In this document: piece after piece, positions 1 through 56,790 of the stretch
Layout of the letters: the number at the start of each line of letters is the position of its first letter
How positions within the stretch are numbered: the stretch's first letter is position 1
Assembly: GCA_017398585.1 (NCBI GenBank)
Contig: JAFQFS010000087.1
Coordinates: 1 to 59,394 of the forward strand
Source of the DNA: Clostridia bacterium
Lineage (GTDB): Bacteria > Bacillota > Clostridia > Oscillospirales > CAG-272
Direction of reading: 5' to 3'
Length of the DNA: 59,394 nt
The notes under the pieces: generated by a model
What the model was told of the DNA's origin: nothing
Seen by the model: only the letters and a program-made list of their open reading frames with translations
The model's database searches: none
Position numbers and translations under genes: made by a program

Positions 1-79
1 AAAACCTTTTTGCAAAAAGGTTTTCCCGAACCCTTTCCAAAAAACTTCAGACTGGATGGGACTACGAAGAAAGTGCAGA
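1..79 (+). repeat. Dispersed palindromic repeat unit 1 (left end truncated by window edge)
   Basis: AAAACCTTTTT-GC-AAAAAGGTTTTCCC, tail CCCTTTCCAAAAAACTTC, GTGCAGA at 73-79 after a 24 bp spacer. Confidence 0.85.
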
Positions 80-107
80 TTTTCATTGAAAATCCCCTCA
101 AATCCTC

Positions 108-136
108 TTGACGGATGTGGGGCGATGTGATATAAT
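108..136 (+). promoter_or_regulatory. Sigma-A promoter of the leuS T-box leader
   Basis: TTGACG-17 bp-TATAAT with extended -10 TG. Confidence 0.75.
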
Positions 137-157
137 AACTTTATCCGAAATATTTTA

Positions 158-413
158 AATGCAGTGATGGGGAAAAACGGACCGGAATCCGTGCAGAGAG
201 CTGTCGTCTGGTGCAAGACAGCAGGAGGAACGTTTGATACTCACCCCGAAGCAGCCGTTTGAACGTGCGGGAGACCGCGCCAGTAGATGCGGACGGAACC
301 CTCCGTTACAGGGGCAGGGCATCATGTGTGTCCGGGAGAGGGTAGTTTCTACCGAAAAAGAGTGGTAACACGAGGTTTTTCGCCGCGTCTCTTTGCAGAG
401 ATGGGCGTTTTTT
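158..413 (+). promoter_or_regulatory. Leu T-box riboswitch
   Basis: Stem I with AGAGAG and GGTGCAA motifs, specifier CTC (Leu) at 240-242, T-box AAGAGTGGTAACACG at about 358-372, terminator hairpin plus T-run at 381-413, upstream of leuS. Confidence 0.9.
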
Positions 414-457
414 GTTTCTATCCTCCGAAATCTTATAATTATTACAAGGAAGGCATC

Positions 458-2860
458 ATGAAATACGATTTTAGTGCGATTGAAAAGAAATGGCAGGATA
501 AATGGGAAGAAGCCGGTATTTTCCACGCTTCCGAAGATCACAGCAAGCCGAAGTTCTACGGTCTTGTTGAATTCCCCTATCCGAGCGGTGCCGGCATGCA
601 TGTCGGTCACATCAAGGCGTACTCCGGTCTGGAAGTCATCTCCCGCAAGAGACGTATGCAGGGCTACAATGTTCTGTTCCCGATGGGCTTTGACGCATAC
701 GGTCTGCCCACCGAAAACTATGCGATCAAGACCGGTATTCACCCCCGTCAGGTAACCGACCAGAACATCGCGAAGTTCACCTCTCAGCTCAAGAGAGTAG
801 GCTTCTCCTTCGACTGGACACGCGTTGTCGATACTACTGAAGAAGGCTACTACAAGTGGACCCAGTGGATCTTCCGCAAGATGTTCGATGCGGGACTCGT
901 TTTCCGTGCGACCACGCTCGTCAACTACTGCCCGTTCTGCAAGGTCGTTCTCTCCAACGAAGACTCCCAGGGCGGCAAGTGCGATATCTGCCACAACGAT
1001 ATTATCCAGAAGTCCAAGGACGTATGGTATCTCCGCATTACCGAATACGCGGACAAGCTCCTCGAAGGTCTCGAAAAGGTTGACTACCTGCCGAACGTAA
1101 AGCTCCAGCAGGAAAACTGGATCGGCCGTTCCGAAGGCGCATTCGTCAACTTCGCTCTCACGAACTGCGACGAAACCCTCCGCATCTACACCACCCGCTG
1201 TGACACCATGTTCGGAGCGACCTTCATGGTCATCGCTCCCGAACATCCGATCATTGAAAAGTACGCGGACCGTATCTCCAACATCGACGCGCTGAACGCG
1301 TATAAGGAAGAATGCGCAAAGAAGACCGAATTCGAACGTACCCAGCTCGTCAAGGACAAGACCGGCGTGCGCATCGAAGGCATTGCTGCGATCAACCCCG
1401 CAACGGGCAAGGAAATCCCGATCTACATCTCCGACTACGTTATGATGGGCTATGGTACCGGCGCGATCATGGCAGTACCGGCACACGACGAACGTGACTA
1501 CGACTTTGCAAAGAAGTTCGGCATCGAGATCATCGAAGTCATCAAGGGCGGCGACATTTCCAAGGAAGCCTACACCGGCGACGGCGAAATGGTCAACTCC
1601 GGATTCCTGAACGGCATCGAAACCAAGAAGGAAGCCATCGCAAAGATGCTCGAGTACCTCGGTGAAAAAGGTCTCGGCGAAAAGGGCGTACAGTACAAGA
1701 TGAAGGACTGGGCGTTCAACCGTCAGCGTTACTGGGGCGAACCGATTCCGATCGTACACTGCCCGAAGTGCGGTATGGTCGGCGTTCCCTACGAAGAACT
1801 CCCGCTCAAGCTCCCGAACATGGAAAACTTCGCACCCGGTGAAGGCGGCGAAAGCCCGCTCGCAAAGGTCGAAGAATTCGTCAACTGCTCCTGCCCGAAA
1901 TGCGGCGGCGCGGCAAAGCGTGAAACCGACACCATGCCCCAGTGGGCAGGTTCCTCCTGGTACTTCCTCCGTTACGCGGACGCGCACAACGAAGACGCAT
2001 TCGCGGATCCGGAAAAGCTGAAGTACTGGCTCCCCGTTGACTGGTACAACGGCGGTATGGAACACGTTACCCGTCACATGATCTACTCCCGCTTCTGGCA
2101 CCGCTTCCTTTACGACATCGGCGCAGTTCCGGTGGACGAACCCTACGCAAAGCGTACCGCACAGGGTCTGATCCTCGGTCCGGACGGCGACAAGATGAGT
2201 AAGTCCAAGGGCAACGTTGTTGACCCGAACGATGTCGTCAACGAATACGGCGCAGACGTTCTCCGTGTGTACATCCTCTTCATGGGCGACTATGCGTCCG
2301 CGGCTCCGTGGAACGACAGCAGCGTCAAGGGATGCAAGCGCTTCCTCGACCGCGTTGCAGCTCTCACCGACCTCGTAAAGGGTACCGGCGTGACTGCAAA
2401 GCTCGAATCCGCATTCCACAAGACCGTCAAGAAAGTGACTGAAGACATCGAAGACATGAAGTTCAACACCGCCATCGCGGCGATGATGACCCTCATCAAC
2501 ACCATCTACGAAGTCGGCAGCCTCACCGCAGACGAACTGAAGACGCTTCTCAAGCTCCTCTGCCCGTTTGCACCGCATCTCTGTGAAGAAATGTGGGAAA
2601 CCCTCGGCGAAAAGAACTTCCTCTCCATGACCGCATGGCCGGAATGGGACGAAGCGAAGACCGTTGACGCGGAAATCGAAATCGCCGTACAGGTCAGCGG
2701 CAAGCTCCGTGCGACCATCACCATCGCGGCAGACGCTTCCAAGGAAGACGCCATCGCAGCCGCTCTCGCAGACGAACGCATTCAGGCAGCCATCGCCGGC
2801 AAGAACGTCGTCAAGGAAATCTACATCCCCGGCAAGATCGTCAACATCGTGGCTAAGTAA
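458..2860 (+). CDS. leuS: Leucine--tRNA ligase
   Basis: FPYPSGAGMHVGH (HIGH), KMSKS, editing-domain GYGTGAIMAVPAHD; start moved to ATG 458 after RBS AAGGAAGG. Confidence 0.97.
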   Translation: MKYDFSAIEKKWQDKWEEAGIFHASEDHSKPKFYGLVEFPYPSGAGMHVGHIKAYSGLEVISRKRRMQGYNVLFPMGFDAYGLPTENYAIKTGIHPRQVTDQNIAKFTSQLKRVGFSFDWTRVVDTTEEGYYKWTQWIFRKMFDAGLVFRATTLVNYCPFCKVVLSNEDSQGGKCDICHNDIIQKSKDVWYLRITEYADKLLEGLEKVDYLPNVKLQQENWIGRSEGAFVNFALTNCDETLRIYTTRCDTMFGATFMVIAPEHPIIEKYADRISNIDALNAYKEECAKKTEFERTQLVKDKTGVRIEGIAAINPATGKEIPIYISDYVMMGYGTGAIMAVPAHDERDYDFAKKFGIEIIEVIKGGDISKEAYTGDGEMVNSGFLNGIETKKEAIAKMLEYLGEKGLGEKGVQYKMKDWAFNRQRYWGEPIPIVHCPKCGMVGVPYEELPLKLPNMENFAPGEGGESPLAKVEEFVNCSCPKCGGAAKRETDTMPQWAGSSWYFLRYADAHNEDAFADPEKLKYWLPVDWYNGGMEHVTRHMIYSRFWHRFLYDIGAVPVDEPYAKRTAQGLILGPDGDKMSKSKGNVVDPNDVVNEYGADVLRVYILFMGDYASAAPWNDSSVKGCKRFLDRVAALTDLVKGTGVTAKLESAFHKTVKKVTEDIEDMKFNTAIAAMMTLINTIYEVGSLTADELKTLLKLLCPFAPHLCEEMWETLGEKNFLSMTAWPEWDEAKTVDAEIEIAVQVSGKLRATITIAADASKEDAIAAALADERIQAAIAGKNVVKEIYIPGKIVNIVAK

Positions 2861-2882
2861 TTGAATACAGTGAGAAATGAAT

Positions 2883-2937
2883 CGGGGGAAACCTTTTTGA
2901 AAAAAGGTTTCCCCCGAACCCCTTTCCAAAAACGTTT
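2883..2937 (+). repeat. Dispersed palindromic repeat unit 2
   Basis: CGGGGGAAACCTTTTT-GA-AAAAAGGTTTCCCCCG then CCCCTTTCCAAAAACGTTT, starting about 23 bp after the leuS stop. Confidence 0.9.
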
Positions 2938-2973
2938 CATCCGGATGGATTGGATTAAGTTTGTAGAAAGTGC

Positions 2974-3003
2974 TTGACATATATAGTGTTGATGTGGTAT
3001 AAT
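2974..3003 (+). promoter_or_regulatory. Sigma-A promoter
   Basis: TTGACA-18 bp-TATAAT with TG extension. Confidence 0.7.
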
Positions 3004-3036
3004 GTCTACAAATACAGAATATGTGAGGTGCGGACA

Positions 3037-3819
3037 ATGAAACGATGGATTGCGGGAATATTCGTGATGGTTCTGCTGTGCTGCGGCGGCTGTGCGGAAA
3101 AACCGGTGGAAGAGAAGGTCAAAATGGACGATCTCATGAAGATCAGCACGTGGGTGATGGATCCGGCACTGGAAGGGAAAGGGTACTGGGCGTATGACAG
3201 GGATAGTTATGGCACCAAGGGGCACTGGGTTCCGAACAAAGGGGAGCCTGCCGTGAACGACGAAGACGTCTTCCGTGAGGAACGTCTTGCGGTGGGAGAG
3301 ACACGCATCATGGCACCGATCGGCTACAAAGGGGGGAATCTGAACTTTACCATTGATTTCGAAGGAATCGTCACGGTGGAAAAGACCGAACCGGCGGACC
3401 ACAGCATCCTGACTTCCTTTGAACCGAATCTGGCCGATCAGTGGATTGAGGAGACGCTCATCACCCGCAACGGTCCATGCAATCTGAACGTCTTTCCGGT
3501 AGGAAAAAATCTGGCCAGCGAAGGAAGAGGTCTTTTGATTCAGCATAATACCATCGCGGAGAAGGAATATTTACTGACCATCAAGGGATACGAACTGGAC
3601 GGTTCGCTGATGGTCACGGCAGAACTGAAGCTGACCACACTGGAAGACGAAGCGTTTCCGTATGAAGAGTATATTCAGGAAACATACAGAAGAACCGGCG
3701 GCTACGCAGGGTATGGGGAATTGTATGCGGTCGGAGAAAACCGTACCCGGTTCTGCTCGGTGGAACTGGTGTCCTACGAATACAGCGACCACTACAAAAT
3801 GATGGAAATCTTCGGATAA
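3037..3819 (+). CDS. Hypothetical lipoprotein
   Basis: ATG 3037 after GAGGTG; signal peptide MKRWIAGIFVMVLLCCGG|C; no recognised domain. Confidence 0.75.
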   Translation: MKRWIAGIFVMVLLCCGGCAEKPVEEKVKMDDLMKISTWVMDPALEGKGYWAYDRDSYGTKGHWVPNKGEPAVNDEDVFREERLAVGETRIMAPIGYKGGNLNFTIDFEGIVTVEKTEPADHSILTSFEPNLADQWIEETLITRNGPCNLNVFPVGKNLASEGRGLLIQHNTIAEKEYLLTIKGYELDGSLMVTAELKLTTLEDEAFPYEEYIQETYRRTGGYAGYGELYAVGENRTRFCSVELVSYEYSDHYKMMEIFG

Positions 3820-3821
3820 AC

Positions 3822-3861
3822 AAAACGTGCGTACAGACGTTACGGTCTGCACGCACGTTTT
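3822..3861. terminator. Bidirectional intrinsic terminator
   Basis: AAAACGTGCGTACAGAC..GTCTGCACGCACGTTTT between convergent genes. Confidence 0.7.
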
Positions 3862-3877
3862 CTCGTGCCGTTATTTT

Positions 3878-5251: not shown

Positions 5252-5278
5252 AGCGCCGCTCCTCTCCGTGGGTATGCC

Positions 5279-5677: not shown

Positions 5678-5903
5678 GGTATACGTGTCTCCTTTGTTTG
5701 CAAAAACTTTAATAAATTGAATGATAAAACTGATAAGGAATCGTTTATACATAAATTATAACCTTTTTTACTACACAAGTCAATGCTTTCTTGTAAGATA
5801 AATGAAATCTGTAAAAACGACAAAAAACGCCCGCCGTCCGACTGGATAAATTGAACAAAACGTGTAGTTGTGAAAACAAAAAGATACTTGACAAAAACTT
5901 CGC

Positions 5904-13108: not shown

Positions 13109-13123
13109 CGATTGGAGATCATT

Positions 13124-13636
13124 ATGAATAAAATAAAAAAACAGCGCATCGGCGCATTGGATGTATTCATCATCGTGGCTGTTCTGGTCTGTGCGGTCAG
13201 CGTTGGCCTCCGCATGTTCATGACGCGGAACTCCGACCTCGACAAGAATGTTCAGCTTGACAACTATATCGTTTCCTTTAAGGTCATGGGCATCCGTGAC
13301 TCCTCGGCGAAAAACTATCTCCGGCAGGGAACGAACTTCTATCTCGACGAAAACGATGCCTTCTTCGGCACCCTCCGCGAAGGCGTTGCCACCAACGATG
13401 CCGAGACGTATTACGACATGCCGGACGGTACCGTCGTCCTCGCGCCGAATACGGCTACGGGCGACCAGTACCGCGTCGATGCGGAATGCAGCCTTGACGT
13501 CACAGGAAAAATGGACGCAAACGGCTATTTTCTCCTCGGCGGCAACAAATACATCGGCATTAACAAGGAACTCCTGATCTACAGCAAATACCTTTCGATC
13601 ACCGTCATCGTAACGGACATTACGAAGGCACAATAA
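13124..13636 (+). CDS. DUF4330 family protein (second paralog)
   Basis: RIGALDVFIIVAV anchor and size similar to 10586-11071; ATG 13124 after GGAG. Confidence 0.72.
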   Translation: MNKIKKQRIGALDVFIIVAVLVCAVSVGLRMFMTRNSDLDKNVQLDNYIVSFKVMGIRDSSAKNYLRQGTNFYLDENDAFFGTLREGVATNDAETYYDMPDGTVVLAPNTATGDQYRVDAECSLDVTGKMDANGYFLLGGNKYIGINKELLIYSKYLSITVIVTDITKAQ

Positions 13637-13640
13637 AGCA

Positions 13641-13682
13641 AGATAAAAAGTGACTGCGGAATTCCGCAGTCACTTTTTATCT
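13641..13682. terminator. Bidirectional terminator (perfect 42 bp palindrome)
   Basis: AGATAAAAAGTGACTGCGGAA|TTCCGCAGTCACTTTTTATCT between convergent genes. Confidence 0.8.
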
Positions 13683-13694: not shown

Positions 13695-14495
13695 TTAAAG
13701 TTCCAGAGCAGCGCCGACGGGGTAGTGGTCGGAAACGGTGATGCCGTTTACTTCGTCGTCCATCTTCATCGTACGTGCAGGTTCCGCGTACGGGAGGTTG
13801 GAGAAGACGTAGTCGATCTTGATCTGAACCTTTTCGGGATTGTTGTTGTGGAAGGTGAAGCCGGCGGGTTCGGTCATGTCGGCCAGCTTTTCGCCCGCAC
13901 CGGTGAACTTCAGGATGGTCTTGATGACAGGGCTGTCGGGCGTTGCGTTCATGTCGCCGGTCAGGATCACGGGCATCGGCCACTTCTTGTAGTCTTCCGC
14001 CATGCGGTTGAGGATCACGGTGATTCCCTGCGCCTGTGCGATCGGTCCTACGTGGTCGAGGTGGGTGTTGTAGTGGCGGAACAGCTTTCCGTTTTCCTTG
14101 CAGCGAAGGGTAGCGGCAACGCAGATTCTCGGGCAGTCGGACTGGTCGGTCACGAAACGGGTACCGGGGATGCCGGGCGTATCGGACAGCCAGAACATGT
14201 TCAGGTCGAGCAGGTCAAACTTGTCCTTCTTGAACATGATGACGTTGCTTTCGCCGAGCAGGTTCGCGTCACGTCCGAGACCGCATACCTGATAATCCGG
14301 AAAATTGTCGATCAGCCACTGACGCTGAGCGGGCATGGTTTCCTGGAACCCGATGATGTCCGCCTCGTATGCCGGAAGCTTTTCCTTGATGATCTCACGG
14401 CGTACCGCAAAGCATCTCGGATTTCCGGAGGAAGCACCGCCGTCCGCGCGTCCGTCCGTCCAGATGTTGAATGAAAATACACGAAGTTCGCTCAT
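13695..14495 (-). CDS. Endonuclease/exonuclease/phosphatase family protein
   Basis: SFNI, DIIGFQE, NTHLDH, GDMN, IDY, SDHYPV. Confidence 0.9.
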   Translation of the reverse strand: MSELRVFSFNIWTDGRADGGASSGNPRCFAVRREIIKEKLPAYEADIIGFQETMPAQRQWLIDNFPDYQVCGLGRDANLLGESNVIMFKKDKFDLLDLNMFWLSDTPGIPGTRFVTDQSDCPRICVAATLRCKENGKLFRHYNTHLDHVGPIAQAQGITVILNRMAEDYKKWPMPVILTGDMNATPDSPVIKTILKFTGAGEKLADMTEPAGFTFHNNNPEKVQIKIDYVFSNLPYAEPARTMKMDDEVNGITVSDHYPVGAALEL

Positions 14496-14525
14496 GATTT
14501 TCCTCCTTATTGGGAAGTGAAGTTA

Positions 14526-14611
14526 TTGGGGAGGAACTTTTTGAAAAAAGTTCCTCCCCAACCCCCTCTTCCAAAACTTTTGGACGAATAAGAAACAGGG
14601 TATGGTGCGGA
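14526..14611 (+). repeat. Dispersed palindromic repeat unit 3
   Basis: TTGGGGAGGAACTTTTT-GA-AAAAAGTTCCTCCCCAA, tail CCCCCTCTTCCAAAACTTT, GTGCGGA 24 bp later. Confidence 0.9.
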
Positions 14612-16696: not shown

Positions 16697-17032
16697 ATGG
16701 ATTGCCTTTTCTGTAAGATCATCGCGGGAGACATCCCGTCGGCCAAAGTGTATGAAGACGACGATATGTACGCGTTCCGCGACATCAATCCCGAAGCACC
16801 GTGCCACGTTCTGGTGGTACCCAAGAAGCACATCGCATCCGCAGACGAAATAGGAGCGGACAACAGCGCGATCGTCGCAAAAATCTACGAAAAAATTCCG
16901 GAAATCGCCCGCCTCGGCGGCGTAAAGAACGGCTACCGCGTCGTCACCAACTGCGGTCCCGATGCCGGCCAGACCGTCTTCCACCTGCACTTCCACATCC
17001 TCGGCGGCGCAGTTCTCGGAAAAATGGCTTAA
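16697..17032 (+). CDS. Histidine triad (HINT) nucleotide-binding protein
   Basis: DCLFCKII, GQTVFHLHFHILGG. Confidence 0.95.
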   Translation: MDCLFCKIIAGDIPSAKVYEDDDMYAFRDINPEAPCHVLVVPKKHIASADEIGADNSAIVAKIYEKIPEIARLGGVKNGYRVVTNCGPDAGQTVFHLHFHILGGAVLGKMA

Positions 17033-17051
17033 TTGAAGAAATAGAGTTTGC

Positions 17052-17315
17052 GGGGAAAAACTTTTTGGAAAAAGTTTTTCCCCAAGTTAATTTATTAACT
17101 TGTCACCCCATTTTCAAAAACTTTTATACGAAAAGGAGAAACATAGTTGAGTGCAGATTTGAAGTACCTGAATTTTGTTAAGCTGACAAAATTACGTATA
17201 CGAACGCTCTGCACAAACTCAGTCTGTCTTTTCAGTTTAAAGTTTTTTGGAAGGGTGTCCGGTTCCGACTTGCAGAGCAAGTCGGGGAAAACTTTTTTCA
17301 AAAAAGTTTTCCCCG
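17052..17315. repeat. Inverted doublet of the palindromic repeat (units 4 and 5), REPIN/MITE-like
   Basis: Hairpins at 17052-17083 and 17283-17315 with tails facing inward; inner GTGCAGA 17151-17157 and TCTGCAC 17208-17214. Confidence 0.88.
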
Positions 17316-17322
17316 AAAAACT

Positions 17323-21452: not shown

Positions 21453-21499
21453 TTTATTAACTCCAGATCAATCAGATTTTTGTTATTCCCCTTTCCCGA

Positions 21500-21571
21500 A
21501 AAGGTTTTGGAAATGGGGCAACAAGCTGCATAAGCAACTTGGGGAAACCTTTTTCTCAAAATGGTTTCCCC
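21500..21571 (-). repeat. Dispersed palindromic repeat unit 6 (between serC and serA)
   Basis: Plus strand AAGGTTTTGGAAATGGGG, linker hairpin CAAGCTGC-ATAA-GCAACTTG, GGGGAAACC..GGTTTCCCC. Confidence 0.85.
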
Positions 21572-21587
21572 GCGAAAACTTTATTTC

Positions 21588-22670
21588 TTACTTAGGATTC
21601 TTTTCAGCGAAGTCCTTCATGAATGCCACGAGAGCTTCGACACCTTCGTAGGGCATTGCATTGTAGATGGACGCTCTCATGCCGCCGACGGAACGGTGAC
21701 CCTTGAGGTTCATGAGACCTGCCTTTTCGGCTTCCTTGGGGAATTTCTTGTCGAGTTCTTCCACGCCGGTAACGAAGGTCACGTTCATCATGGAACGGGA
21801 ATCCTTTTCCACGGGCGCGATGTAGTAATCCTGGGAATCGAGGTAATCGTACAGAAGAGCTGCCTTCTTTTCGTTCAGCTTCTTCATTTCTTCGAGACCG
21901 CCGAGACCGAGGATCCATTCGTAAACGAGACCTGCCACGTAGATCGCGTAGCACGGGGGAGTGTTGTACATGGAATCGTTGTCCGCCATGAGCTGCCAGT
22001 CGAGCATGGACGGAGTTTCCGGACGTGCGTTTCCGAGAAGGTCTTCGCGGACGATCGCAACGGTCAGACCGGCGGGAGCCATGTTCTTCTGTGCACCGGC
22101 GTAGATCACGCCGAATTTGGTAACGTCAACGGGTTCGGAGATGATGCAGGAGGACATGTCGGCTACGAGCGGGATATCGCCGGTATCGGGAATATAGTTG
22201 AACTTTGTACCGTAAATGGTGTTGTTGTAGCAGATGTGAACATAATCGGCGTCCGGACGGAAGGATTCGCGGGTGGTCGCGGGGATCTTCGCGAAGTTGT
22301 CGTCCTTCGAGGATGCAACGGCCTTGGCGTCGCCGTACTTCTGCGCTTCCTTGTACGCCTTGGTGGAGAACTGACCGGAGAGAATGTAGTCGGCCTTGCC
22401 GGTCTTCATCAGGTTCAGCGGAACCGCCGCAAACTGGGTAGAGGCACCGCCCTGGAGGAAGAGTACTTTGTAATTGTCCGGAATGTTCATTACGGCACGG
22501 AGATCCGCTTCGGCCTTCTTGATGATCGCATCGTACGCGGGAGATCGGTGGCTCATTTCCATAACGGACATGCCTGCGTCACCGTAACATACGAGTTCGG
22601 CTGCGGCTTTTTCCAGTACGGGGAGCGGAAGCATCGACGGACCTGCGGAGAAATTGTAAACTCTGTTCAT
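21588..22670 (-). CDS. serC: Phosphoserine aminotransferase
   Basis: NFSAGP, EMSHR, GAQKN, NTPP, GHRSVGGMRASIYNA. Confidence 0.97.
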   Translation of the reverse strand: MNRVYNFSAGPSMLPLPVLEKAAAELVCYGDAGMSVMEMSHRSPAYDAIIKKAEADLRAVMNIPDNYKVLFLQGGASTQFAAVPLNLMKTGKADYILSGQFSTKAYKEAQKYGDAKAVASSKDDNFAKIPATTRESFRPDADYVHICYNNTIYGTKFNYIPDTGDIPLVADMSSCIISEPVDVTKFGVIYAGAQKNMAPAGLTVAIVREDLLGNARPETPSMLDWQLMADNDSMYNTPPCYAIYVAGLVYEWILGLGGLEEMKKLNEKKAALLYDYLDSQDYYIAPVEKDSRSMMNVTFVTGVEELDKKFPKEAEKAGLMNLKGHRSVGGMRASIYNAMPYEGVEALVAFMKDFAEKNPK

Positions 22671-26371: not shown

Positions 26372-26391
26372 AATTTCCTTTTCCCAGATTG

Positions 26392-26447
26392 AAAGTTTTT
26401 GAAAAGGGGTGTGGGGAAAAACTTTTTTCAAAAAGTTTTTCCCCACA
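26392..26447 (-). repeat. Dispersed palindromic repeat unit 7
   Basis: Plus strand AAAGTTTTTGAAAAGGGG-TGT-GGGGAAAAACTTTTT-TC-AAAAAGTTTTTCCCCACA, about 14 bp after the prfB stop. Confidence 0.9.
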
Positions 26448-26460
26448 AAACCTCATTTCA

Positions 26461-27573
26461 TTATTCTCTTGCGGCGTTCATCTTGAGGTAGGCGTTGATG
26501 AAGCCGTCGATTTCGCCGTCCATGACCGCCTGAATGTTGCCGTCTTCGAAGCCGGTACGGGTGTCCTTGGCGAGGGTGTAGGGCATGAAGACATAGGAAC
26601 GGATCTGTGCGCCCCATTCGATGTTGGTCTTGTTGCCCTTAATGTCTTCGATCTTGTCGAGCTTTTCGCGCTGCTTGATTTCCATGAGCTTGGACTTCAG
26701 CATCTTGAGCGCGGTTTCCTTGTTCTGGAGCTGGCTGCGTTCGGTCTGGCATCCGACAACGATTCCGGTCGGGATGTGGACGATACGGATCGCGGAGTCG
26801 GTCTTGTTGATGTGCTGCCCGCCGGCACCGCTGGAACGGTGTGCCGTGATTTCGAGTTCTTCTTCCTTCAGCTCGATGGTGTTGTCGTCTTCGAATTCGG
26901 GCATGACTTCGACGGACGCGAACGAGGTGTGACGGCGTCCGGAGGAGTCGAACGGGGAAACGCGGACGAGACGGTGTACACCGTTTTCACTCTTCAGATA
27001 ACCGTAGGCGTTCACGCCTTCGATCATGATGGTTGCGGACTTCAGACCCGCTTCTTCGCCGTCCAGCCAGTCAATCAGCTTGACGTTGTAGCCGTGGCGT
27101 TCGCCCCATCTGGTGTACATGCGGTAGAGCATCTGCGCCCAGTCCTGCGCTTCGGTGCCGCCGGCACCCGGATGGAAGCTGATGATCGCGTTGTTTGCGT
27201 CGTATTCGCCGGAGAGAAGAATTTCGATGCGCATGCGTTCTTCTTCTTCTTCGATCGCCTTGATTTCGGATTCAACTTCCGGAACCATGGTTTCATCGTT
27301 TGCTTCAATCGCGAGTTCCGCGAGCGCGATGGTGTCTTCGAGTCTGCCTTCGATCGCGTGATATTCCGCGATCTTGTCCTTCATCTGCTTGATCTGACGG
27401 AGAACCTTGCTGGAGTTTTCCTGATCGTTCCAGAAGTTTTCCGCGGTCGTGGTTTCTTCAAGCGCCGCGACCTTTTCGGTCAGTTCGTCAATACGGAGCG
27501 CGCTGCCGAGTTCGGTAATGTTTGCTCTGAAATTTTCCAGTCTGTATTTTGCTTCTTCAAGTGCGAGTATCAA
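26461..27573 (-). CDS. prfB: Peptide chain release factor 2 (single uninterrupted frame)
   Basis: SPF anticodon motif, GGQ, HTSFASV; TTG start at 27573 after RBS GGAGGA. Confidence 0.96.
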   Translation of the reverse strand: MILALEEAKYRLENFRANITELGSALRIDELTEKVAALEETTTAENFWNDQENSSKVLRQIKQMKDKIAEYHAIEGRLEDTIALAELAIEANDETMVPEVESEIKAIEEEEERMRIEILLSGEYDANNAIISFHPGAGGTEAQDWAQMLYRMYTRWGERHGYNVKLIDWLDGEEAGLKSATIMIEGVNAYGYLKSENGVHRLVRVSPFDSSGRRHTSFASVEVMPEFEDDNTIELKEEELEITAHRSSGAGGQHINKTDSAIRIVHIPTGIVVGCQTERSQLQNKETALKMLKSKLMEIKQREKLDKIEDIKGNKTNIEWGAQIRSYVFMPYTLAKDTRTGFEDGNIQAVMDGEIDGFINAYLKMNAARE

Positions 27574-27636
27574 GTGTATATCCTCCAATATTTTTATTTA
27601 ACGATGGGAAACGGAATGTATCGTATCATATGCCCG

Positions 27637-38648: not shown

Positions 38649-38665
38649 TTGTTGTGTTTTTTTAC

Positions 38666-38929
38666 GGGGGAGAAACTTTTTGAAAAAATGTTCCCCTGAG
38701 ACTTGCCTTGCAAGTCTCGATCGAACCCCTTCTCAAAAACTTTTCAACGAATGGACAGACAAAGCCGGGTGCAGATTCAGAATACCAAACCGGCTGCACT
38801 GCCAACAGAATTTTGTGACTTCAATTCTGCACATATCTTGTCCATCTGTTCAGTATAAAGTTTTTTGAAATGGGGTTACAAGTTGCCGAGACAACTTGGG
38901 GAAAACTTTTTTTCAAAAAAGTTTTCCCC
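38666..38929. repeat. Inverted doublet of the palindromic repeat (units 8 and 9), REPIN/MITE-like
   Basis: Hairpins at 38666-38696 (imperfect) and 38898-38929; both with linker hairpins; inner GTGCAGA 38769-38775 and TCTGCAC 38826-38832. Confidence 0.85.
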
Positions 38930-38965
38930 GAGAACTCCACCTATTCAAGAAAGGACTTGATACTT

Positions 38966-44739: not shown

Positions 44740-44753
44740 CAAATGTGGTTTCT

Positions 44754-44810
44754 CGGGGAAAACCTTTTTAAGGAAAAGGTTTTCCCCGAACCCCTTTCCA
44801 AAACCTTTTT
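44754..44810 (+). repeat. Dispersed palindromic repeat unit 10
   Basis: CGGGGAAAACCTTTT..AAAAGGTTTTCCCCG, tail CCCCTTTCCAAAACCTTT, about 15 bp after the AEC stop. Confidence 0.9.
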
Positions 44811-44841
44811 GGACTGGAACAAAAATGTGGAGGAATCTTTC

Positions 44842-49847: not shown

Positions 49848-49868
49848 AAATACCTCCGTTTTTTCTCT

Positions 49869-51220: not shown

Positions 51221-51439
51221 AAATGCGCCGGAGTCCGGACATCCGACGCATTTCAGGCAAACGACCGGAAACCGTCCCGATTTCCAACATCCTATATTCT
51301 GAACTTCCGTGGGAAGCCTCCGATCGGAATACTGGGTCAGACGGGTATCCCGTCAGAAACAGTGTATGCATCCGGAACGATTCCGGTCACCGGAGGTTCC
51401 GCAGATCATCTATTTTAAAGAACAGAGCAGGTATCAATT

Positions 51440-52117: not shown

Positions 52118-52151
52118 TCTACGTACCCAAAACAGCAAGGAGGAGCGTAAT

Positions 52152-53513
52152 ATGATGGATGAAATCCAGGAAGAACTGGTTACCAAAATTCAGGAACTGC
52201 TGACCAATAAGGATTATATGGCGCTCCGAAGTACGATGATGGAACTGCAGGCGGCCGACATTGCCGTCCTTCTCGGGGAATTTCCGGAAGACGATATTCC
52301 GATCCTGTTCCGTCTGCTTCCGAAGGAGACGGCGGCGGAATGCTTCGCCTATTTCGAAACGGAGGTACAGGAGACCCTGATCAACGAATTCAGCGACCGC
52401 GAACTCTGGAACGTCATCGAAGGTCTGTTCGTGGACGATATGGTTGACATCATCGAGGAAATGCCCGCGAACGTGGTCAAGCGTATCATCAAGAATACGC
52501 CGTACGAAAAGCGGGAAGAGGTCAACATGATCCTGCGCTATCCGAAAAACAGTGCGGGTACCATCATGACCACCGAGTTTGTAGAACTCAAAGCGTGGAT
52601 GACCAGGGAACAGGTTTACCGGAACATCCGGGAATCCGGCGTCGAAAAGGAAACGGTGTACGACTGCTACGTCACCGACGCCAGCCGTCATCTGATCGGC
52701 GTTATTTCCGTCAAGGACCTCATTATGAGTGACGACGAGGACGCAGTGGTCGACGATCTCATGGAAACCGAAGTGATCGCGGCAAACGTTCTGGAAGACC
52801 GGGAATCCGTTGTCGCGACCATGAAAAAATACGGCTTCGTTGCACTTCCGGTCACCGACGGCGAAAACCGCCTCGTCGGGATCGTTACCAGTGACGACGC
52901 ACTGACTGTTATTGAAGACGAAAGCACCGAGGACATCGAGATCATGGCGGCGATCACGCCGTCCGAAAAGACCTACTTCAAAACGACAGTCTTCGAAACT
53001 TGGAAAATGCGCATCCCGTGGCTGCTGTTCCTTATGATCTCGTCGGTGTTCACCAGCAAGATCCTCCAGTATTTTGAAGGACAGCTCACCGCCAACGGCG
53101 CGCTGATCGCCTTCATGCCGATGCTGATGGGTACCGCCGGGAATGCGGGCGGACAGGTATCCGTCACCATTATCCGAAGCCTCTCCATCGGCGAAGTCCG
53201 GATGAGCGATATTCTGAAGATCGTCTGGAAGGAATTCCGCGTCTCCATCCTCTGCGGCATCACCCTTGCGGTCGTCAATTTCCTGAAAATGCTGGCGGTC
53301 GACAACGTGACCATCGGCGTGGCGCTGACGGTATCGCTCACGATCAGCCTGACCGTCGTCGTCGCGAAATTCATCGGCGGCATTCTTCCCGTGATCGCAA
53401 AGCGCATCGGATTTGACCCCGCTGTCATGGCGAGCCCGTTCATCACCACGATCTGCGACGCGGTATCGCTTCTTCTGTATTTCCGAGTTGCTTCCATTAT
53501 TCTTGGAATCTGA
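52152..53513 (+). CDS. mgtE: Magnesium transporter MgtE
   Basis: MgtE N-domain, CBS pair, GNAGGQ, DPAVMASPFITT. Confidence 0.95.
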   Translation: MMDEIQEELVTKIQELLTNKDYMALRSTMMELQAADIAVLLGEFPEDDIPILFRLLPKETAAECFAYFETEVQETLINEFSDRELWNVIEGLFVDDMVDIIEEMPANVVKRIIKNTPYEKREEVNMILRYPKNSAGTIMTTEFVELKAWMTREQVYRNIRESGVEKETVYDCYVTDASRHLIGVISVKDLIMSDDEDAVVDDLMETEVIAANVLEDRESVVATMKKYGFVALPVTDGENRLVGIVTSDDALTVIEDESTEDIEIMAAITPSEKTYFKTTVFETWKMRIPWLLFLMISSVFTSKILQYFEGQLTANGALIAFMPMLMGTAGNAGGQVSVTIIRSLSIGEVRMSDILKIVWKEFRVSILCGITLAVVNFLKMLAVDNVTIGVALTVSLTISLTVVVAKFIGGILPVIAKRIGFDPAVMASPFITTICDAVSLLLYFRVASIILGI

Positions 53514-53723
53514 CCGGAGGAACGGCGGAAAATTGTCCGTTGTTGTCAAATTTCATATAAAATTTACGGGAATCCGGACGGATTTCTATGGATATAGCTA
53601 CCGAAAATTTTTATTAAAATGTTCAAAATTACGTAAATATATGTTATAATAATAATAAAGTTATACTGCCGTCTTTTTCGATGGGCGGAAACAAAAAAAT
53701 AATTAAAAATAAAGGGGTATTTT

Positions 53724-54845
53724 ATGAGTGACAGCTTATACGGAGAACTCTCCGTCATCGGTATGCGAGGATGCGAAAAATTCGTTGACCAGGTGGACTA
53801 CTATCTCCGTGAATGGCGCAGCCACGACGAAGACATCACTTTTATCAATATGGCGGACTGCCCGAGATTCGGCTCCGGTGAAGCCAAGGGCCTTATCCAT
53901 ACTTCCATGAGAGGCCACGACGTTTATATCATCTCCGACTGTTTCAACCACGGCGTCACCTACCGTATGTACGGTCAGAACGTTCCCATGAGTCCCGACG
54001 ATCATTTCCAGGATCTGAAGAGAACCATCGCTGCGATCGGTGGTAAGGCAAGCCGTATCACCGTGATCATGCCCATGCTGTACGAAGGCAGACAGCACAA
54101 GCGTACCACCCGTGAATCCCTTGACTGCGCACTTGCTCTTCAGGAACTCGTGAATATGGGTGTCTCCAATATCCTTACGTTCGACGCACATGACCCGCGC
54201 GTCAGCAATGCGATCCCGCTGACCGGCTTTGACAATGTACGTCCTACATACCAGATGATCAAGGCTCTGGTAAGGAATGTTCCCGATATCTCCCTCTCTC
54301 ATGATGATATCATGATCATTTCTCCCGACGAAGGTGCGATCTCCCGTACGATGTACTACGCATCCGTTATGGGCATCGAACTCGGTATGTTCTATAAGAG
54401 ACGCAACTATTCCGTTATCATCGACGGCAAGAACCCGATCGAAGCGCATGAATATCTCGGTAAGGATGTCCGCGGCAAGGACGTGATCGTTGTCGACGAC
54501 ATGATCTCCTCCGGTGACTCCATCATCGACGTTGCACGTCAGCTCAAGGAAAAGGGCGCGAAGCGCATCTTCTTCTTTGTGACCTTCGGTCTGTTCACCA
54601 ACGGTTTCGGCGTGATGGACAAGGCATACGAAGAAGGCCTCTTCACCAAGTGCTTTACTACCAACCTGATCTACCAGCCGGAAGGCCTTCTTGACAGAGA
54701 ATGGTACGGCGAAGTCAATATGTGCAAGTACGTTGCGCTCATGATCGACACCCTCAATCAGGACCGCTCCATCAGCACTCTCCTGAACCCCGTGAAGAAG
54801 ATCCACAGCGTTCTGGACGCTCATAAAAACTCCACTCAGAAATAA
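53724..54845 (+). CDS. prs: Ribose-phosphate pyrophosphokinase
   Basis: FGSGE, YEGRQ, FDAH, SPDEGA, VVDDMISSGDS. Confidence 0.92.
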   Translation: MSDSLYGELSVIGMRGCEKFVDQVDYYLREWRSHDEDITFINMADCPRFGSGEAKGLIHTSMRGHDVYIISDCFNHGVTYRMYGQNVPMSPDDHFQDLKRTIAAIGGKASRITVIMPMLYEGRQHKRTTRESLDCALALQELVNMGVSNILTFDAHDPRVSNAIPLTGFDNVRPTYQMIKALVRNVPDISLSHDDIMIISPDEGAISRTMYYASVMGIELGMFYKRRNYSVIIDGKNPIEAHEYLGKDVRGKDVIVVDDMISSGDSIIDVARQLKEKGAKRIFFFVTFGLFTNGFGVMDKAYEEGLFTKCFTTNLIYQPEGLLDREWYGEVNMCKYVALMIDTLNQDRSISTLLNPVKKIHSVLDAHKNSTQK

Positions 54846-54877
54846 TTTATAACCAATCACTCGGAGCAAAAGCAAAT

Positions 54878-56590
54878 ATGCAGAATTTCAAATATATCAC
54901 CGCAAAAAAAATCAGTGAAGCCATCGGTGCGCTCGTTCCGGACGCCGGATTCACCGTGGAAGACATCGTGACTATGCTCGAATATCCCCCGGATACGTCG
55001 ATGGGTGACGTTGCGTTCCCGTGCTTCCGTCTCTCGAAGCTCATGCGTATGGCTCCTCCGAAAATTGCGTCGGCACTGGCGGAAAAAACCGCAGACTTTG
55101 AAGCCGGCACGTCCCAGGCAGTCGGCGGCTATCTGAACTTCAAGATTTCCGACGGTTACCTCGCCGGACATGTTCTCACCGAAATCGAAGAAAAGGGTGA
55201 GAAATTCGGTTCCAGCAACATCGGGGAAGGCAAGACCGTCGTTCTTGACTACTGTTCTCCGAATCTGATGAAGCCCTTCCATATCGGTCATCTCGGTACG
55301 ACCGTCATCGGTCATTCCCTCAAGCTGCTTCACCAGTTCGTGGGCTATAACTGTGTCGGGATCAACTACCTCGGCGACTGGGGTACCCAGTTCGGCAAGC
55401 AGATCGCCGCATACAAGAAGTGGGGCGACCGCGAAACCATCGAAAAGGGCGGCGTTGACGAACTCGTAAAGCTGTACGTCCGCTACAACAACGAATGCGA
55501 AGACAACGACGCACTCAAGGACGAAGCAAGAGCCGAATTCCATAAGCTCGAAGAGGGCGACGAAGAAAACCTCGCTCTCTGGAAATGGTTCGTGGAAGTT
55601 TCTTTTGAGGAATGTAAGAAGACCTGCGACCTTCTCGGCGTTACCTTCGACTCCTTCAAGGGCGAATCCTTCTATACTGACAAAATGCCCGCACAGGTCG
55701 AAAAGCTCCGCGAAACCGGTCTTCTGAAGATGGATGAAGGTGCTTCCATTGTCGATCTGTCGGACTACAATATGCCGCCGTGCCTCATCCTCAAGAAGGA
55801 CGGATCCACTCTGTATCCCACCCGTGACATTGCCGCTGCCGTATATCGCAAGAATACCTACGATTTCGACAAGTGCATCTACGTCACCTCTTCCGCACAG
55901 AGCCTCCACTTTGCACAGTGGTTCAAGGTTGTGGAACTGATGGGCTACGACTGGAGCGACAAGCTGGTTCACGTACCTTACGGTACCGTATCCATCGACG
56001 GCGCAAAGCTCGCAACCCGTACCGGTAACGTGGTTCTTCTCCGTGACCTGTTCCGCCTGTCCATCGAAAAGGTCAGCGAAATCATGAATGAAAAGAGCCC
56101 CGATCTCGAAAACCGCGAAGCGGTAGCGGAAGCAGTCGGGATTGGCGCAATCGTATTCAATTATCTGTATAACAGCCGTATCAAGGACATCAACTTCACG
56201 CTCGAACAGGCGCTCAGCTTTGACGGAAGCACAGGTCCCTACGCGCAGTATACCTACGCGAGAACCTGCAGCATCCTCGAAAAGGCAGCGGGCGTGGTCA
56301 GTGAAGGTGAAGGAAAGCTGACGAGCGAAAGTGAAGCAGCTCTCCTCAAGACGCTGTCCCGTTTCCCGGAAATCGTTGCTAACGCAATCGAAGAATACGA
56401 ACCTTCCAACATCACCCGCTACGTCATCGACGTATGTACCGCGTTCAACCGTTTCTATCGCGACTGCCCGATCCTCACGGCAGAGGAAGAAGAACAGCGC
56501 CAGTTCCGTGTCCGCCTCACCAAGGCAGCCAAGACGGTCCTCGGCACCGCACTTCACCTCATCTGCATGAAGACGCCGGAGAAGATTTAA
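54878..56590 (+). CDS. argS: Arginine--tRNA ligase
   Basis: SPNLMKPFHIGH, NYLGDWGTQFG, GSTGPYAQYTYAR, C-terminal PEKI. Confidence 0.96.
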   Translation: MQNFKYITAKKISEAIGALVPDAGFTVEDIVTMLEYPPDTSMGDVAFPCFRLSKLMRMAPPKIASALAEKTADFEAGTSQAVGGYLNFKISDGYLAGHVLTEIEEKGEKFGSSNIGEGKTVVLDYCSPNLMKPFHIGHLGTTVIGHSLKLLHQFVGYNCVGINYLGDWGTQFGKQIAAYKKWGDRETIEKGGVDELVKLYVRYNNECEDNDALKDEARAEFHKLEEGDEENLALWKWFVEVSFEECKKTCDLLGVTFDSFKGESFYTDKMPAQVEKLRETGLLKMDEGASIVDLSDYNMPPCLILKKDGSTLYPTRDIAAAVYRKNTYDFDKCIYVTSSAQSLHFAQWFKVVELMGYDWSDKLVHVPYGTVSIDGAKLATRTGNVVLLRDLFRLSIEKVSEIMNEKSPDLENREAVAEAVGIGAIVFNYLYNSRIKDINFTLEQALSFDGSTGPYAQYTYARTCSILEKAAGVVSEGEGKLTSESEAALLKTLSRFPEIVANAIEEYEPSNITRYVIDVCTAFNRFYRDCPILTAEEEEQRQFRVRLTKAAKTVLGTALHLICMKTPEKI

Positions 56591-56604
56591 ACTATAAAAA
56601 ATTC

Positions 56605-56790
56605 GGGGAAAACTTTTTTGGAAAAAAGTTTTCCCCAAGCCCCTTTCAAAAAACTTTATACGGGTATAGATACAAAGAACAGTGCAGATTTCTCGTTAGA
56701 TCTGCACAAAACTTTGTCCTTATATTTGTATAAAAGTTTTTGAAGGTGGGGTTTGGGGAGGGGACTTTTTCCAAAAAGTCCCCTCCCCAA
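56605..56790. repeat. Inverted doublet of the palindromic repeat (units 11 and 12), REPIN/MITE-like
   Basis: Hairpins at 56605-56636 and 56753-56790; inner GTGCAGA 56682-56688 and TCTGCAC 56701-56707. Confidence 0.9.

Follow-up and report, generated by a model that had tools for sequence, protein, structure and literature searches.

The 59,394-nt contig JAFQFS010000087.1 of a Clostridia bacterium (assembly GCA_017398585.1; Oscillospirales, CAG-272), referred to here at its full length as the window, carries twelve copies of a palindromic repeat. We found that this repeat is real, very abundant, and strand specific. The description that suits it best is a hairpin plus a mirror tail forming the end of a mobile composite that took over terminator positions. 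On balance, we lean toward the view that the units are the ends of a lineage-specific, high-copy-number, noncoding mobile element of the type of miniature inverted-repeat transposable elements (MITEs) or REPINs, folding and settling in the genome as proposed below.

A strand-specific hairpin-and-tail unit in hundreds of copies

The window is one entire contig (C79) of its genome, here called G000, whose assembly comprises 3.18 Mb in 178 contigs at 54% G+C and 73.6% completeness. All 12 units listed in the initial annotation were recovered, with coordinates agreeing within 3 nt and strands as given there. A covariance model trained on 11 of them, R1, produced exactly 12 strong matches in the window (46 to 82 bits) and no further copies, and the opposite strand of the same hairpins reached only 22 to 37 bits. 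The tail motif also occurs 12 times in the window, every time beside a hairpin, and a hairpin pattern gave 19 overlapping matches at 10 sites, compared with 0 in 100 shuffles. The expectation of many more copies genome-wide was borne out. A permissive palindrome finder returned 583 family hairpins, 537 of which could be oriented by their one-sided tail, and a search with the tail motif alone returned 644 occurrences in the 3.18 Mb, versus 6 in the shuffled genome used as a control. Within 45 nt upstream of 555 of these 644 tail motifs there is a stem of at least 11 Watson-Crick base pairs (390 perfect, 140 with one mismatch, and 25 with two). In the R1 scan of the genome, all 150 scored candidates were significant, and the family total by this model is therefore at least 150.

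Each unit has a fixed, strand-specific order: a weak outer motif, a perfect palindrome with a stem of 15 to 17 bp, a linker of 1 to 3 nt, and the tail. The stem has G/C pairs at its foot and a T-run/A-run at its top. The consensus of 462 units reads tttaa.aAAt.aagTTTcTC, the 32-nt hairpin, GAACCCCTTTcaAAAAACTTTaaac, and then weak A-rich sequence, with (G)AACCCCTTTC as the consensus right after the stem. The loops mark the strand as well: in oriented units a loop letter G (214 units) far outnumbers C (13), CGAG (34) outnumbers CTCG (2), and AAGG (30) outnumbers CCTT (2). The anatomy first proposed, with a short linker behind the hairpin, stands with one amendment: part of the linker pairs with the 2 nt preceding the hairpin, and the stem is 2 bp longer than described. 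The two bases ahead of the G-run pair with the first two linker bases (first pair in 431 and both pairs in 386 of 452 units), in five different pair combinations among the 452 units. Given that these closing pairs form, the stem measures 15 to 17 bp, leaving a true linker of about 1 nt. In 481 of the 537 oriented units no more than 5 nt separate the hairpin from the tail, which follows an insertion of 6 to 45 nt in the other 56; since 48 of these 56 longer linkers contain a stem of at least five pairs and are thus mostly hairpins, the start of the tail is held at the foot of the main stem.

Structure rather than sequence is kept, as had been suggested from compensatory changes in the window, where we count double changes in 5 of the 14 predicted pairs. 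Across 516 units ascertained by their tails there are 58 different arm strings, every stem position is 97 to 100% Watson-Crick, and nine stem positions show two to four pair types. Outside the stem, pairing covariation is limited to the two closing pairs beside it. A helix enclosing the entire unit was considered and rejected: mutual information between two 24-nt segments, one directly ahead of the hairpin and one directly behind the tail A-run, does not exceed noise. RNA folds predicted for six window units have energies of -22 to -33 kcal/mol (z -2.8 to -4.7); in these folds the tail is mostly unpaired, except that in the AAGG-loop subfamily it folds into a small hairpin of its own.

A sister hairpin family of the form GGGG(G)A(A)CCTTTTCAGAGGAAAGG(T)TCCCC was seen at 12 loci in G000 (e.g., C157:3839, C135:9681, and C173:42216). 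It has a tail of its own, CCCCCTCCAAACCTCTTT, whose CCTCT is the Watson-Crick complement of the loop AGAGG.

The tail covaries with the hairpin arm in parallel register

The tail had been taken for a constant box, CCCC-Y-run-CAAAAAC-TTT. It is not constant: its sequence changes from copy to copy in step with the hairpin arm. Read in the same 5'-to-3' direction, it complements the 5' arm (C for G and T for A), which makes it a mirror image of the 3' arm. Arm GGGG-AAAAC is accompanied by tail CCCC-TTTC in 88 of 116 units, AAAAAC by TTTTC in 44 of 54, GGG-AAAACC by CCC-TTTCC in 20 of 22, AGGACC by TCTCC in all 6, AAGAAAC by ATCTTC in 16 of 19, and AGGGAC by TCTTC in 17 of 21. Further along, the T-run of the arm is answered by the A-run of the tail, and the loop by the letters following that A-run (G by C in 222 of 237 units, CGAG by GCTT in 36 of 37, and AAGG or GAGG by CCTTT in 54 of 58).

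Arms with asymmetric purine runs distinguish the parallel from the antiparallel register. Among 95 such units, the parallel fit is better in 44 and the antiparallel fit in 2, with 49 ties; counted by distinct purine-run type, 11 are better parallel and 1 antiparallel, with 4 ties. We also scored tails by their edit distance to a rule in which purines are complemented in register and C is kept. The distance was 1.41 edits for a unit's own tail, rising to 2.22 with tails taken from units of a different arm and to 4.93 when the expectation was reversed, and 350 of 515 units had their own tail within one edit of the rule, the single edit being a systematic shortening by 1 nt. In terms of excess mutual information, the arm shares 1.78 bits with the tail run, the closing pairs 1.54 bits with the linker, the loop 0.94 bits with the post-tail letters, the T-run 0.30 bits with the tail A-run, and the G-run 0.24 bits with the tail C-run; the arm shares 0.34 bits with the loop and only 0.13 bits with the linker. 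The coupling is modular and colinear, and arm and tail are linked across a nearly uncoupled linker.

The rule is not confined to one genome. It also holds in 59 units of the species G009, for which we compared 368 kb with 64 units at a mean identity of 84% to G000, and it applies, more loosely, to 11 genomes of the family that represent other genera. Alignments of 17 orthologous units from G000 and G009, as we read them, show a different arm in 12, with a matching tail change in about 11 of these; the remaining 5 share both arm and tail. Where two units are paired in a composite (see below), the ends are often of unlike arm type, and even so every tail agrees with the hairpin it follows.

Units are the inverted ends of composite elements that differ between species

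Units lying within 400 nt of each other form 92 tail-to-tail pairs, 2 tandem pairs, and no head-to-head pairs. The hairpin-to-hairpin gap is 140 to 179 nt in 60 pairs and 100 to 139 nt in 24, and the 87 pairs with gaps of 100 to 200 nt share inverted ends and an inverted interior motif. The composite is about 220 to 260 bp long, with the units as its inverted ends. Its interior holds a conserved inverted pair, GTGCAGATTT/AAATCTGCAC, and the interior motifs run in the order ..GACAAAGT..GTGCAGATTTG.. and ..CAAATCTGCAC..CTTTGTC.. around a variable center. Of the 537 oriented units, 184 are paired and 353 are solo; the solo units are half elements that retain part of the composite interior.

In 105 colinear gaps compared between G000 and G009, units are found in G000 only at 20, in G009 only at 10, and in both at 4. 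In three clean cases the inserted DNA includes the outer motif of 13 to 22 nt. Copy number is uneven within the genus, with strict-pattern counts of 281 in G000, then 166, 137, and 65, at most 15 in others, and 0 in 14 of 24 congeners; the same pattern gave 0 matches in 16 genomes of other families of the order. A family-wide draw yielded at least one match in 30 of 201 genomes and 22 of 97 genera, most with 1 to 20 matches and one with 72. The nearest named records are uncultured Clostridia metagenome-assembled genomes (MAGs) from ruminants and other animal guts, labeled Ruminococcus sp., Oscillospiraceae, or Eubacteriales, and in one of them a unit is also present behind the same aspartokinase gene as in the window. 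A blastn search of the composite against plasmid and phage collections gave no match, and viral contigs contained no exact match to a 30-nt unit stretch, with the degenerate pattern in only 5 contigs. A function as a DNA uptake sequence was rejected because the arms vary (58 strings).

Of the 356 contig ends of the G000 assembly, 29 have a full hairpin no more than 120 nt away, and 26 open with a 3' arm and tail. A further 39 tail-to-tail unit pairs, 400 to 6,000 nt apart, enclose gene calls, none of them shown to be a transposase in a search limited to PF01797 in this 178-contig assembly. In G009, elements of about 700 to 770 bp are bounded by the same ends.

Noncoding elements of about 600 to 770 bp with GAGG-loop inverted ends were seen in G009 at C46:24120-24892, C74:27654-28378, C76:37000-37767, and C46:7449-8044. 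They have a conserved, highly structured interior, whose homologue in G000 (C153:21771-22563) has different ends, and an Rfam scan of one such element returned chance matches only. At about 24.9 to 25.1 kb of contig C15 of G000, TTATCCACA-like DnaA boxes (CTTTTCCACAGGAT, AGTTATCCACAGGAT, and TTTTCCACACG) stand beside copies of the inner motif TCTGCAC, and G009 has a similar TCTGCACTTTTCCACAG sequence at the orthologous site, which lacks a unit. The replication origin may be located here, and the inner motif may also exist independently of the element.

Units occupy the position of transcription terminators

The context of the units was read from our own codon-bias gene calls (2,403 genes genome-wide). 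Outside these calls lie 534 of the 537 oriented units, and none of the ten classifiable units in the window is inside one, in line with the earlier observation that the copies are intergenic. Where a gene call adjoins the hairpin side (522 units), the hairpin points to a gene end in 358 units and to a gene start in 164. At gene ends, the distance from the stop codon to the unit has a median of 13 nt and a 10 to 90% range of 7 to 22 nt, and the stop-to-hairpin distance peaks at 7 to 8, 12 to 13, and 15 to 16 nt, which places the stop codons within the A-rich outer motif. Units facing gene starts have this motif too. Units occupy 106 of 273 convergent gaps (39%), 252 of 929 tandem gaps (27%), and 16 of 283 divergent gaps (6%).

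Units and canonical terminators exclude each other. Of the 1,556 gene ends followed by a gap of 40 nt or more, 365 had a unit within 45 nt, in sense orientation in 328 of the 365; a canonical hairpin-plus-T-tract terminator was also present at 9 of these 365 ends, compared with 302 of the 1,191 ends without a unit. At the site of the window composite 17046-17320, G009 has an ordinary bidirectional terminator only, and G048 and G006, two relatives, have that terminator and the right unit only. Terminator and element are swapped at several other orthologous loci, and under a strict terminator definition this applies to 8 of 30 one-sided loci. The units thus occupy the terminator position, and we propose that the elements settle at gene boundaries, mostly 7 to 22 nt past stop codons, that they would have taken over the places of canonical hairpin-plus-T-tract terminators, and that they would supply the 3'-end hairpin of the upstream transcript. 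The units may have terminator or stabilizer activity, or neither.

Proposed folding of the unit ends

In sequence terms, the relation between arm and tail is the geometry of an intrastrand triplex. With a mirror tail, each base pair of the stem gains a third-strand partner (C over G-C, T over A-T, A over T-A, and G over C-G). According to PMC4666352 and PMC7583470, a Hoogsteen C/T third strand runs parallel to the purine strand and a reverse-Hoogsteen A/G third strand runs antiparallel to it; with the tail parallel to the 5' arm, the predicted triples are canonical and of correct polarity. In the nomenclature of PMC4666352, the top strand would be a class III and the bottom strand a class I intrastrand triplex motif. 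The stem switches from a purine run to a pyrimidine run, and a full-length third strand would therefore need to change motif midway. Such a change of motif at the point where the purines switch strand is known from oligonucleotide work as alternate-strand triplex formation.

The blocks of a triplex motif as defined in PMC4666352 are present, namely, GGGG plus A-run, T-run plus CCCC, and CCCC plus T-run in parallel register. Overall, however, the units fall outside the limits stated there (stems of 6 to 15 nt with at most one mismatch and loops of 1 to 6 nt). The second loop, of 1 to 3 nt, is inside these limits but measures 6 to 45 nt in 56 of 537 units, and the first loop counts as about 15 to 20 nt because the stem continues as a T-run/A-run helix.

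We propose that in single-stranded or extruded DNA each end of the element would fold into its hairpin, with the tail returning alongside the stem to act as its third strand. In the top-strand version, C and T of the tail would be placed over G-C and A-T in the lower stem (pyrimidine motif) and the tail A-run over T-A in the upper stem (purine motif); the complementary strand could form the mirror equivalent through G·G-C and A·A-T triples. This fold would be what a mobilizing or copy-correcting machinery needs, and movement would presumably be the work of an enzyme. That the units form an alternate-strand intramolecular triplex in single-stranded DNA, possible on both strands and recognized by the enzyme that copies or moves the element, is a tentative proposal, which we put forward as a possibility rather than as the expected outcome.

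Selection would appear to act at the DNA level. The non-Watson-Crick stem pairs listed comprise 22 G·T and 19 A·C among about 7,500 pairs; G·T is not in excess of A·C, and units lie in both orientations relative to transcription. In addition, both strands satisfy the triplet rules, and an RNA version would need four adjacent protonated cytosines. These points favor a constraint on DNA.

Evidence against the proposal and alternative explanations

Several observations weigh against a mobile, triplex-forming element at terminator positions. The arm-tail rule is imperfect: tails are systematically 1 nt shorter than arms, an arm C beside the T-run is usually answered by C and not by the G of a strict mirror, internal G's are answered by C in part only (arm AGAAAC goes with TTTTC in 11 of 26 units), and several tails in other genera fit poorly. 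With respect to triplex chemistry, the pKa of cytosine is given as about 4.6 in an RNA triple-helix review (PMC7583470), four consecutive C+·G-C triples are disfavored at neutral pH, and in vivo footprinting of the E. coli triplex repeat did not reveal a stable triplex (PMC4666352). With respect to mobility, direct repeats of 2 to 8 nt at symmetric offsets in 81 pairs were not found beyond chance as target-site duplications, the element replaces local sequence relative to orthologous empty sites rather than forming a clean insertion, and no transposase (PF01797 alone was searched) and no autonomous copy were found. With respect to termination, no U-tract follows the unit hairpin, and the U-rich 7 to 9 nt of an intrinsic terminator are absent. 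Sigma-70-like promoters inside composites lying between a gene end and a gene start were sought and rejected (9 of 108 strand reads, compared with 21 of 108 shuffled). Since these composites lack a promoter, transcription must often read through them, which argues against efficient termination; transcription probably does read through the composites in this position.

The arm-tail match itself has a serious rival in descent plus whole-unit gene conversion. On this account there is no third strand: the match would be inherited from a few low-complexity master copies, with blocks G4 A3-5 C T5-6 versus C4 T3-4 C A5-6, and kept by gene conversion, the tail being the remnant 5' arm of a second hairpin. 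The copies are kin by descent, a few arm/tail combinations dominate (AAAAC/TTTC in 88 copies), and whole-unit conversion could move a matched arm and tail together; indeed, loop and post-tail letters change alongside arm and tail at several orthologous loci, as expected for copy replacement. Some copies, including copies in other genera, pair the tail with a downstream GGAAAGGGG or GGAGGGG segment, and the arm-tail rule has many exceptions. This account, however, leaves unexplained the mirror-order tail in about 27 arm types with at least three copies each and the 11-to-1 preference (4 ties) of run types for the parallel register. The second hairpin is absent from the 462-unit consensus, and the intervening linker and closing pairs are nearly uncoupled (0.13 and 0.23 bits) compared with the 1.78 bits between arm and tail. 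No copying process yields mirror (nonreversed complement) sequence, and structural constraint is therefore the natural reading of the coupling; inheritance without a third strand keeps a real but lesser chance of being right. Were the constraint instead one on RNA, the hairpin and its 3' tail would adopt a triple helix of the pyrimidine motif, or a pseudoknot, terminating transcription or shielding the mRNA 3' end, as a bacterial analogue of triple-helical 3'-end stabilizers. The sense orientation at gene ends (328 of 365), with the tail transcribed after the hairpin, would suit such an element, as would the tight spacing past stops (median, 13 nt) and the exclusion of canonical terminators. 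The blocks run R-Y-Y with a third strand parallel to the purine arm, as in pyrimidine-motif triplexes, which can form in RNA (PMC4666352 and PMC7583470), and the loops AAGG, GAGG, and CAGAGG are Watson-Crick complementary to the CCTT/CCTCT behind the tail A-run. Yet 164 of 522 units face a gene start in antisense, where the RNA would be the purine version, a triplex reported in PMC4666352 not to form in RNA. G·U-type pairs are not enriched over A·C in the stems, the hairpin lacks a U-tract and four adjacent C+ triples would be needed at neutral pH, and read-through into downstream genes seems to be needed at many composites; the RNA data at hand are assembled contigs only and uninformative on transcript ends. 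We consider an RNA-level element unlikely.

The initial annotation had pointed to a REP/REPIN-like system and to a Y1 HUH transposase, i.e., a REP-associated tyrosine transposase (RAYT), flanked by units. The inverted pairs of such a system were found (92 pairs), but no RAYT is associated with the units. As an explanation for the whole family, a RAYT would mobilize the repeat, with the hairpin as its binding site and the tail as a mere conserved flank. Intergenic palindromes of 30 to 36 nt in hundreds of copies, often in inverted pairs at a fixed spacing, patchy among close species and with no target-site duplication found, are consistent with this, and RAYT-like open reading frames (ORFs) do occur in two unit-rich relatives, G048 and G009. 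In G000 itself (73.6% complete), however, PF01797 gave 0 matches, as did a tblastn search with the G048 RAYT-like protein. The Y1 genes of five relatives are of two kinds, ordinary IS200-type or RAYT-like ORFs, and no unit hairpin lies in the 1.8 to 3.4 kb fetched around each; the G006 gene is an ordinary IS200-type gene, and the G018 genes score as high against that family. Behind the G048 gene stands another palindrome, of GTAGGG type (GTAGGGGCGATTCACGAATCGCCC), as an inverted pair, and a GTAG-type tetranucleotide is absent from the foot of our hairpin in the unit consensus (aAAt.aagTTTcTC, hairpin, GAACCCC). With the parallel arm-tail coupling also left unexplained, mobilization by a RAYT is quite improbable. 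The last alternative, native and nonmobile terminators or intercistronic stabilizers made alike by convergent selection, draws on the position past stop codons, the exclusion of canonical terminators, and the enrichment in convergent and tandem gaps. It is at odds with the conservation over about 65 to 110 nt including tail and inner motifs, the fixed-size composites, the 164 units facing gene starts, presence or absence at individual loci at 84% identity, the copy number bursts in single species, and the many contig breaks inside the element, and we regard it as very improbable indeed.

The GTAGGG-type inverted pair lies in locus L045 of G048, downstream of 1462-1959(-), and similar repeats, CGTAGGGACACGGCGTGCCGTGTCC, occur in intergenic gaps of G009. 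These palindromes and the RAYT-like gene look like a classical REP/RAYT system in the same genus.

Units in the window

The 12 units of the window are listed below; bit scores refer to R1.

1 to 53, plus strand: contig-start unit, 3' hairpin half plus tail CCCTTTCCAAAAAACTT, 5'-truncated by the contig start (45.9 bits)
2878 to 2942, plus strand: solo unit, 23 nt past the leuS stop (77.6 bits)
14522 to 14586, plus strand: solo unit, arm GGGGAGGAAC, tail CCCCCTCTTCC, fold -32.9 kcal/mol (77.1 bits)
17046 to 17320, no strand: composite, left unit 17046-17130 (plus) and right unit 17234-17320 (minus), tails facing (78.5 and 62.3 bits)
21494 to 21578, minus strand: solo unit, arm GGGGAAACC, tail CCCCATTTCC, hairpin inserted in the linker (60.2 bits)
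26386 to 26450, minus strand: solo unit, arm GGGGAAAAAC, tail CCCCTTTTC (82 bits)
38661 to 38935, no strand: composite, left unit 38661-38749 (plus) with imperfect stem and right unit 38851-38935 (minus) (62.5 and 75 bits)
44749 to 44814, plus strand: solo unit of the AAGG-loop subfamily, 15 nt past a stop codon (71.6 bits)
56599 to 56794, no strand: short composite, 118 nt between hairpins (75.6 and 65.1 bits)

Behind the contig-start unit, at about 70 to 85, stands the inner-arm motif GAAAGTGCAGATTT. The unit at 2878-2942 has its hairpin GGGGGAAACC...GGTTTCCCCC at 2884-2915, its stem including the closing pairs at 2882-2917, and its tail CCCCTTTCCAAAAAC from 2919, with a predicted RNA fold of -28.9 kcal/mol (z -3.6). 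The hairpin side of the unit at 14522-14586 is directed toward the start of the minus-strand gene 13695-14495. The units at 21494-21578 and 26386-26450 each lie 16 nt past the stop of a minus-strand gene, a class-V aminotransferase gene (21588-22670) and a peptide chain release factor gene (26461-27588), respectively, and the tail CCCCTTTCCAAAACCTTTTTGG of the unit at 44749-44814 is able to form a small second hairpin. The composite at 17046-17320 sits between convergent genes for a HIT-family protein and aspartokinase, and its interior contains the inverted pair GTGCAGATTTG ... (A)CGCTCTGCAC, with a linker hairpin inserted in both units. The composite at 38661-38935 lies between codirectional genes, its right unit abutting the start of an FGGY kinase gene. 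In the short composite the ends are of unlike arm type, each with its own matching tail: arm GGGGAAAAC with tail CCCCTTTC in the left unit (56599-56663, plus) and arm GGGGAGGGGAC with tail CCCCACCTTC in the right unit (56727-56794, minus). The genes adjoining the window units are housekeeping genes (leuS, HIT-family, aspartokinase, 2-hydroxyacid dehydrogenase, aminotransferase, release factor, and sugar kinase).

A small extra hairpin of about 20 to 28 nt separates the main hairpin from the tail in 5 of the 12 window units. These linker hairpins, at 17084-17105, 17262-17283, 21519-21540, 38698-38725, and 38876-38897, are variable in sequence (AAGTTG..CAACTT, GACTTGC..GCAAGTC, and GAGACTT..AAGTCTC) and stand exactly between main hairpin and tail.

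A simple scan of the window for terminators and promoters was not discriminating, with 29 terminator-like sites versus 22.2 expected. Two sigma-70 promoters close to consensus and carrying an extended -10 TG, TTGACG-17-TATAAT and TTGACA-18-TATAAT, were seen at 108-136 and 2974-3003, directly behind the half elements 1-100 and 2878-2970, giving a unit-then-promoter arrangement ahead of leuS and of the next gene. A canonical bidirectional terminator, with a 19-bp stem and A- and T-run flanks, lies at 13641-13682 between the convergent genes 13112-13636 and 13695-14495, showing that ordinary terminators coexist with the element in this genome.

In metatranscriptome data (four runs of one study, X1 to X4), parts of the stretch are present in assembled contigs only, which break at the repeats and are uninformative on transcript ends, strand, and read-through. 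Over 16979-17309 the summed contig depth is 28 to 222, compared with 0 to 40 elsewhere in the stretch compared, as expected if copies from across the genome pile up on this composite. One X2 contig joins 21457 to 21588 with 19 other letters in place of the unit at 21541 and may come from a strain without that unit.

Significance and comparison with known systems

The Rfam check advised at the outset, including Clostridiales-type motifs, gave 0 matches at gathering thresholds in the whole window, and permissive scans gave hairpin-like chance matches only, far below those thresholds. In the literature we found no account of the element or of a triplex-type repeat in Clostridia, although the supplementary ITxF tables of PMC4666352, which lay outside the search, could list Firmicutes motifs. 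The passages of PMC12306157 (RepRanger) consulted contain nothing on Clostridia or triplexes, and PMC4666352 (Holder et al. 2015) is the only paper close to the element. Natural intrastrand triplex repeats have so far been essentially one proteobacterial family (BoxC/TM_ECO), with few variants and no covariation evidence for the third block. In the present genome alone there are about 60 arm variants with tails to match, and related copies are spread over the family, making the question of the third strand directly testable. If the triplex reading is true, these 600-odd copies, together with relatives from at least 22 genera, would provide the first case of a natural nucleic-acid triplex with three-way covariation behind its base triples, and they would represent a new mode of transposon-end recognition. 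In this uncultured Clostridia lineage of the ruminant gut, canonical terminators are displaced at roughly a quarter of gene ends with a downstream gap, which bears on how transcription units end in such genomes, and terminator prediction, gene annotation, and MAG assembly are affected because many contig breaks fall in the element.

Bacterial MITEs, such as the Correia elements of Neisseria, ERIC, and the RUP and BOX elements of pneumococci, are noncoding sequences of 100 to 300 bp with terminal inverted repeats. The composite is noncoding, shorter than about 300 bp, and bounded by terminal inverted repeats, and it resembles MITEs in being intergenic, cotranscribed with its neighbors, variable between strains and species, and able to carry different internal cargo between the same ends. 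It differs in that no target-site duplication and no parent insertion sequence with the same ends were detected (PF01797 search only), each terminal repeat is a perfect hairpin plus tail, internal promoter-like sequences are absent, and half copies outnumber full ones (353 solo versus 184 paired units). With intrinsic terminators, the units share a G/C-footed hairpin within about 20 nt of the stop codon, and the two are mutually exclusive here and interchangeable at orthologous sites; however, the T-run of the element is inside the stem with no U-tract after it, its flanks are conserved among repeat-like copies, and it also occurs in antisense ahead of gene starts.

The ends of IS200/IS605 elements are subterminal hairpins read on one strand, whose cleavage sites are recognized by intrastrand interactions with a hairpin-adjacent guide sequence. 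The likeness to our element is that its hairpin ends would act as single-stranded DNA, that no target-site duplication is formed, and that a hairpin-adjacent stretch would interact with another on the same strand. In contrast, its ends are inverted copies of each other, the coupled stretch is 8 to 20 nt rather than 4, and the IS200-type genes of the relatives are not flanked by units. Repetitive extragenic palindromic (REP) sequences and their BIME and REPIN arrangements are extragenic palindromes of 20 to 40 nt in hundreds of copies, single or in inverted pairs at a fixed spacing. They lack target-site duplications, often lie just past stop codons and are cotranscribed, and are lineage specific. 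Our element shares the palindromes, the high copy number, the inverted pairs, the lack of target-site duplications, the post-stop position with cotranscription, and the lineage specificity (see also PMC4666352), but it has no associated RAYT and no GTAG-like flank, and its stem is perfect and longer with an A/T core and is joined by a covarying mirror tail.

The closest known system is BoxC/PIT/TM_ECO of E. coli and other Proteobacteria, as described in PMC4666352 (and in Hoyne et al. 2000, cited there). Both are dispersed, intergenic, highly similar repeats of three consecutive blocks, two of them hairpin forming and the third mirroring one of these; in both, each strand fits one triplex class and the second loop has 3 nt; and both occur in closely spaced inverted pairs, vary strongly in number among close relatives, and mark unusually variable loci. 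The TM_ECO triplex was shown in vitro, whereas our element is known from its sequence. The element is unrelated in sequence and belongs to Clostridia instead of Proteobacteria, its stem has 15 to 17 bp with a purine run switching to a pyrimidine run (mixed motif), and it forms the end of a 220- to 260-bp composite with many arm variants and matching tails. TM_ECO has no preferred distance to ORFs and is more often upstream of them, whereas the element lies 7 to 22 nt past stop codons with its hairpin toward the gene. Finally, TM_ECO counts 23 copies in E. coli K-12 and at most 143 elsewhere, compared with about 580 to 640 copies of the element per 3.2 Mb.

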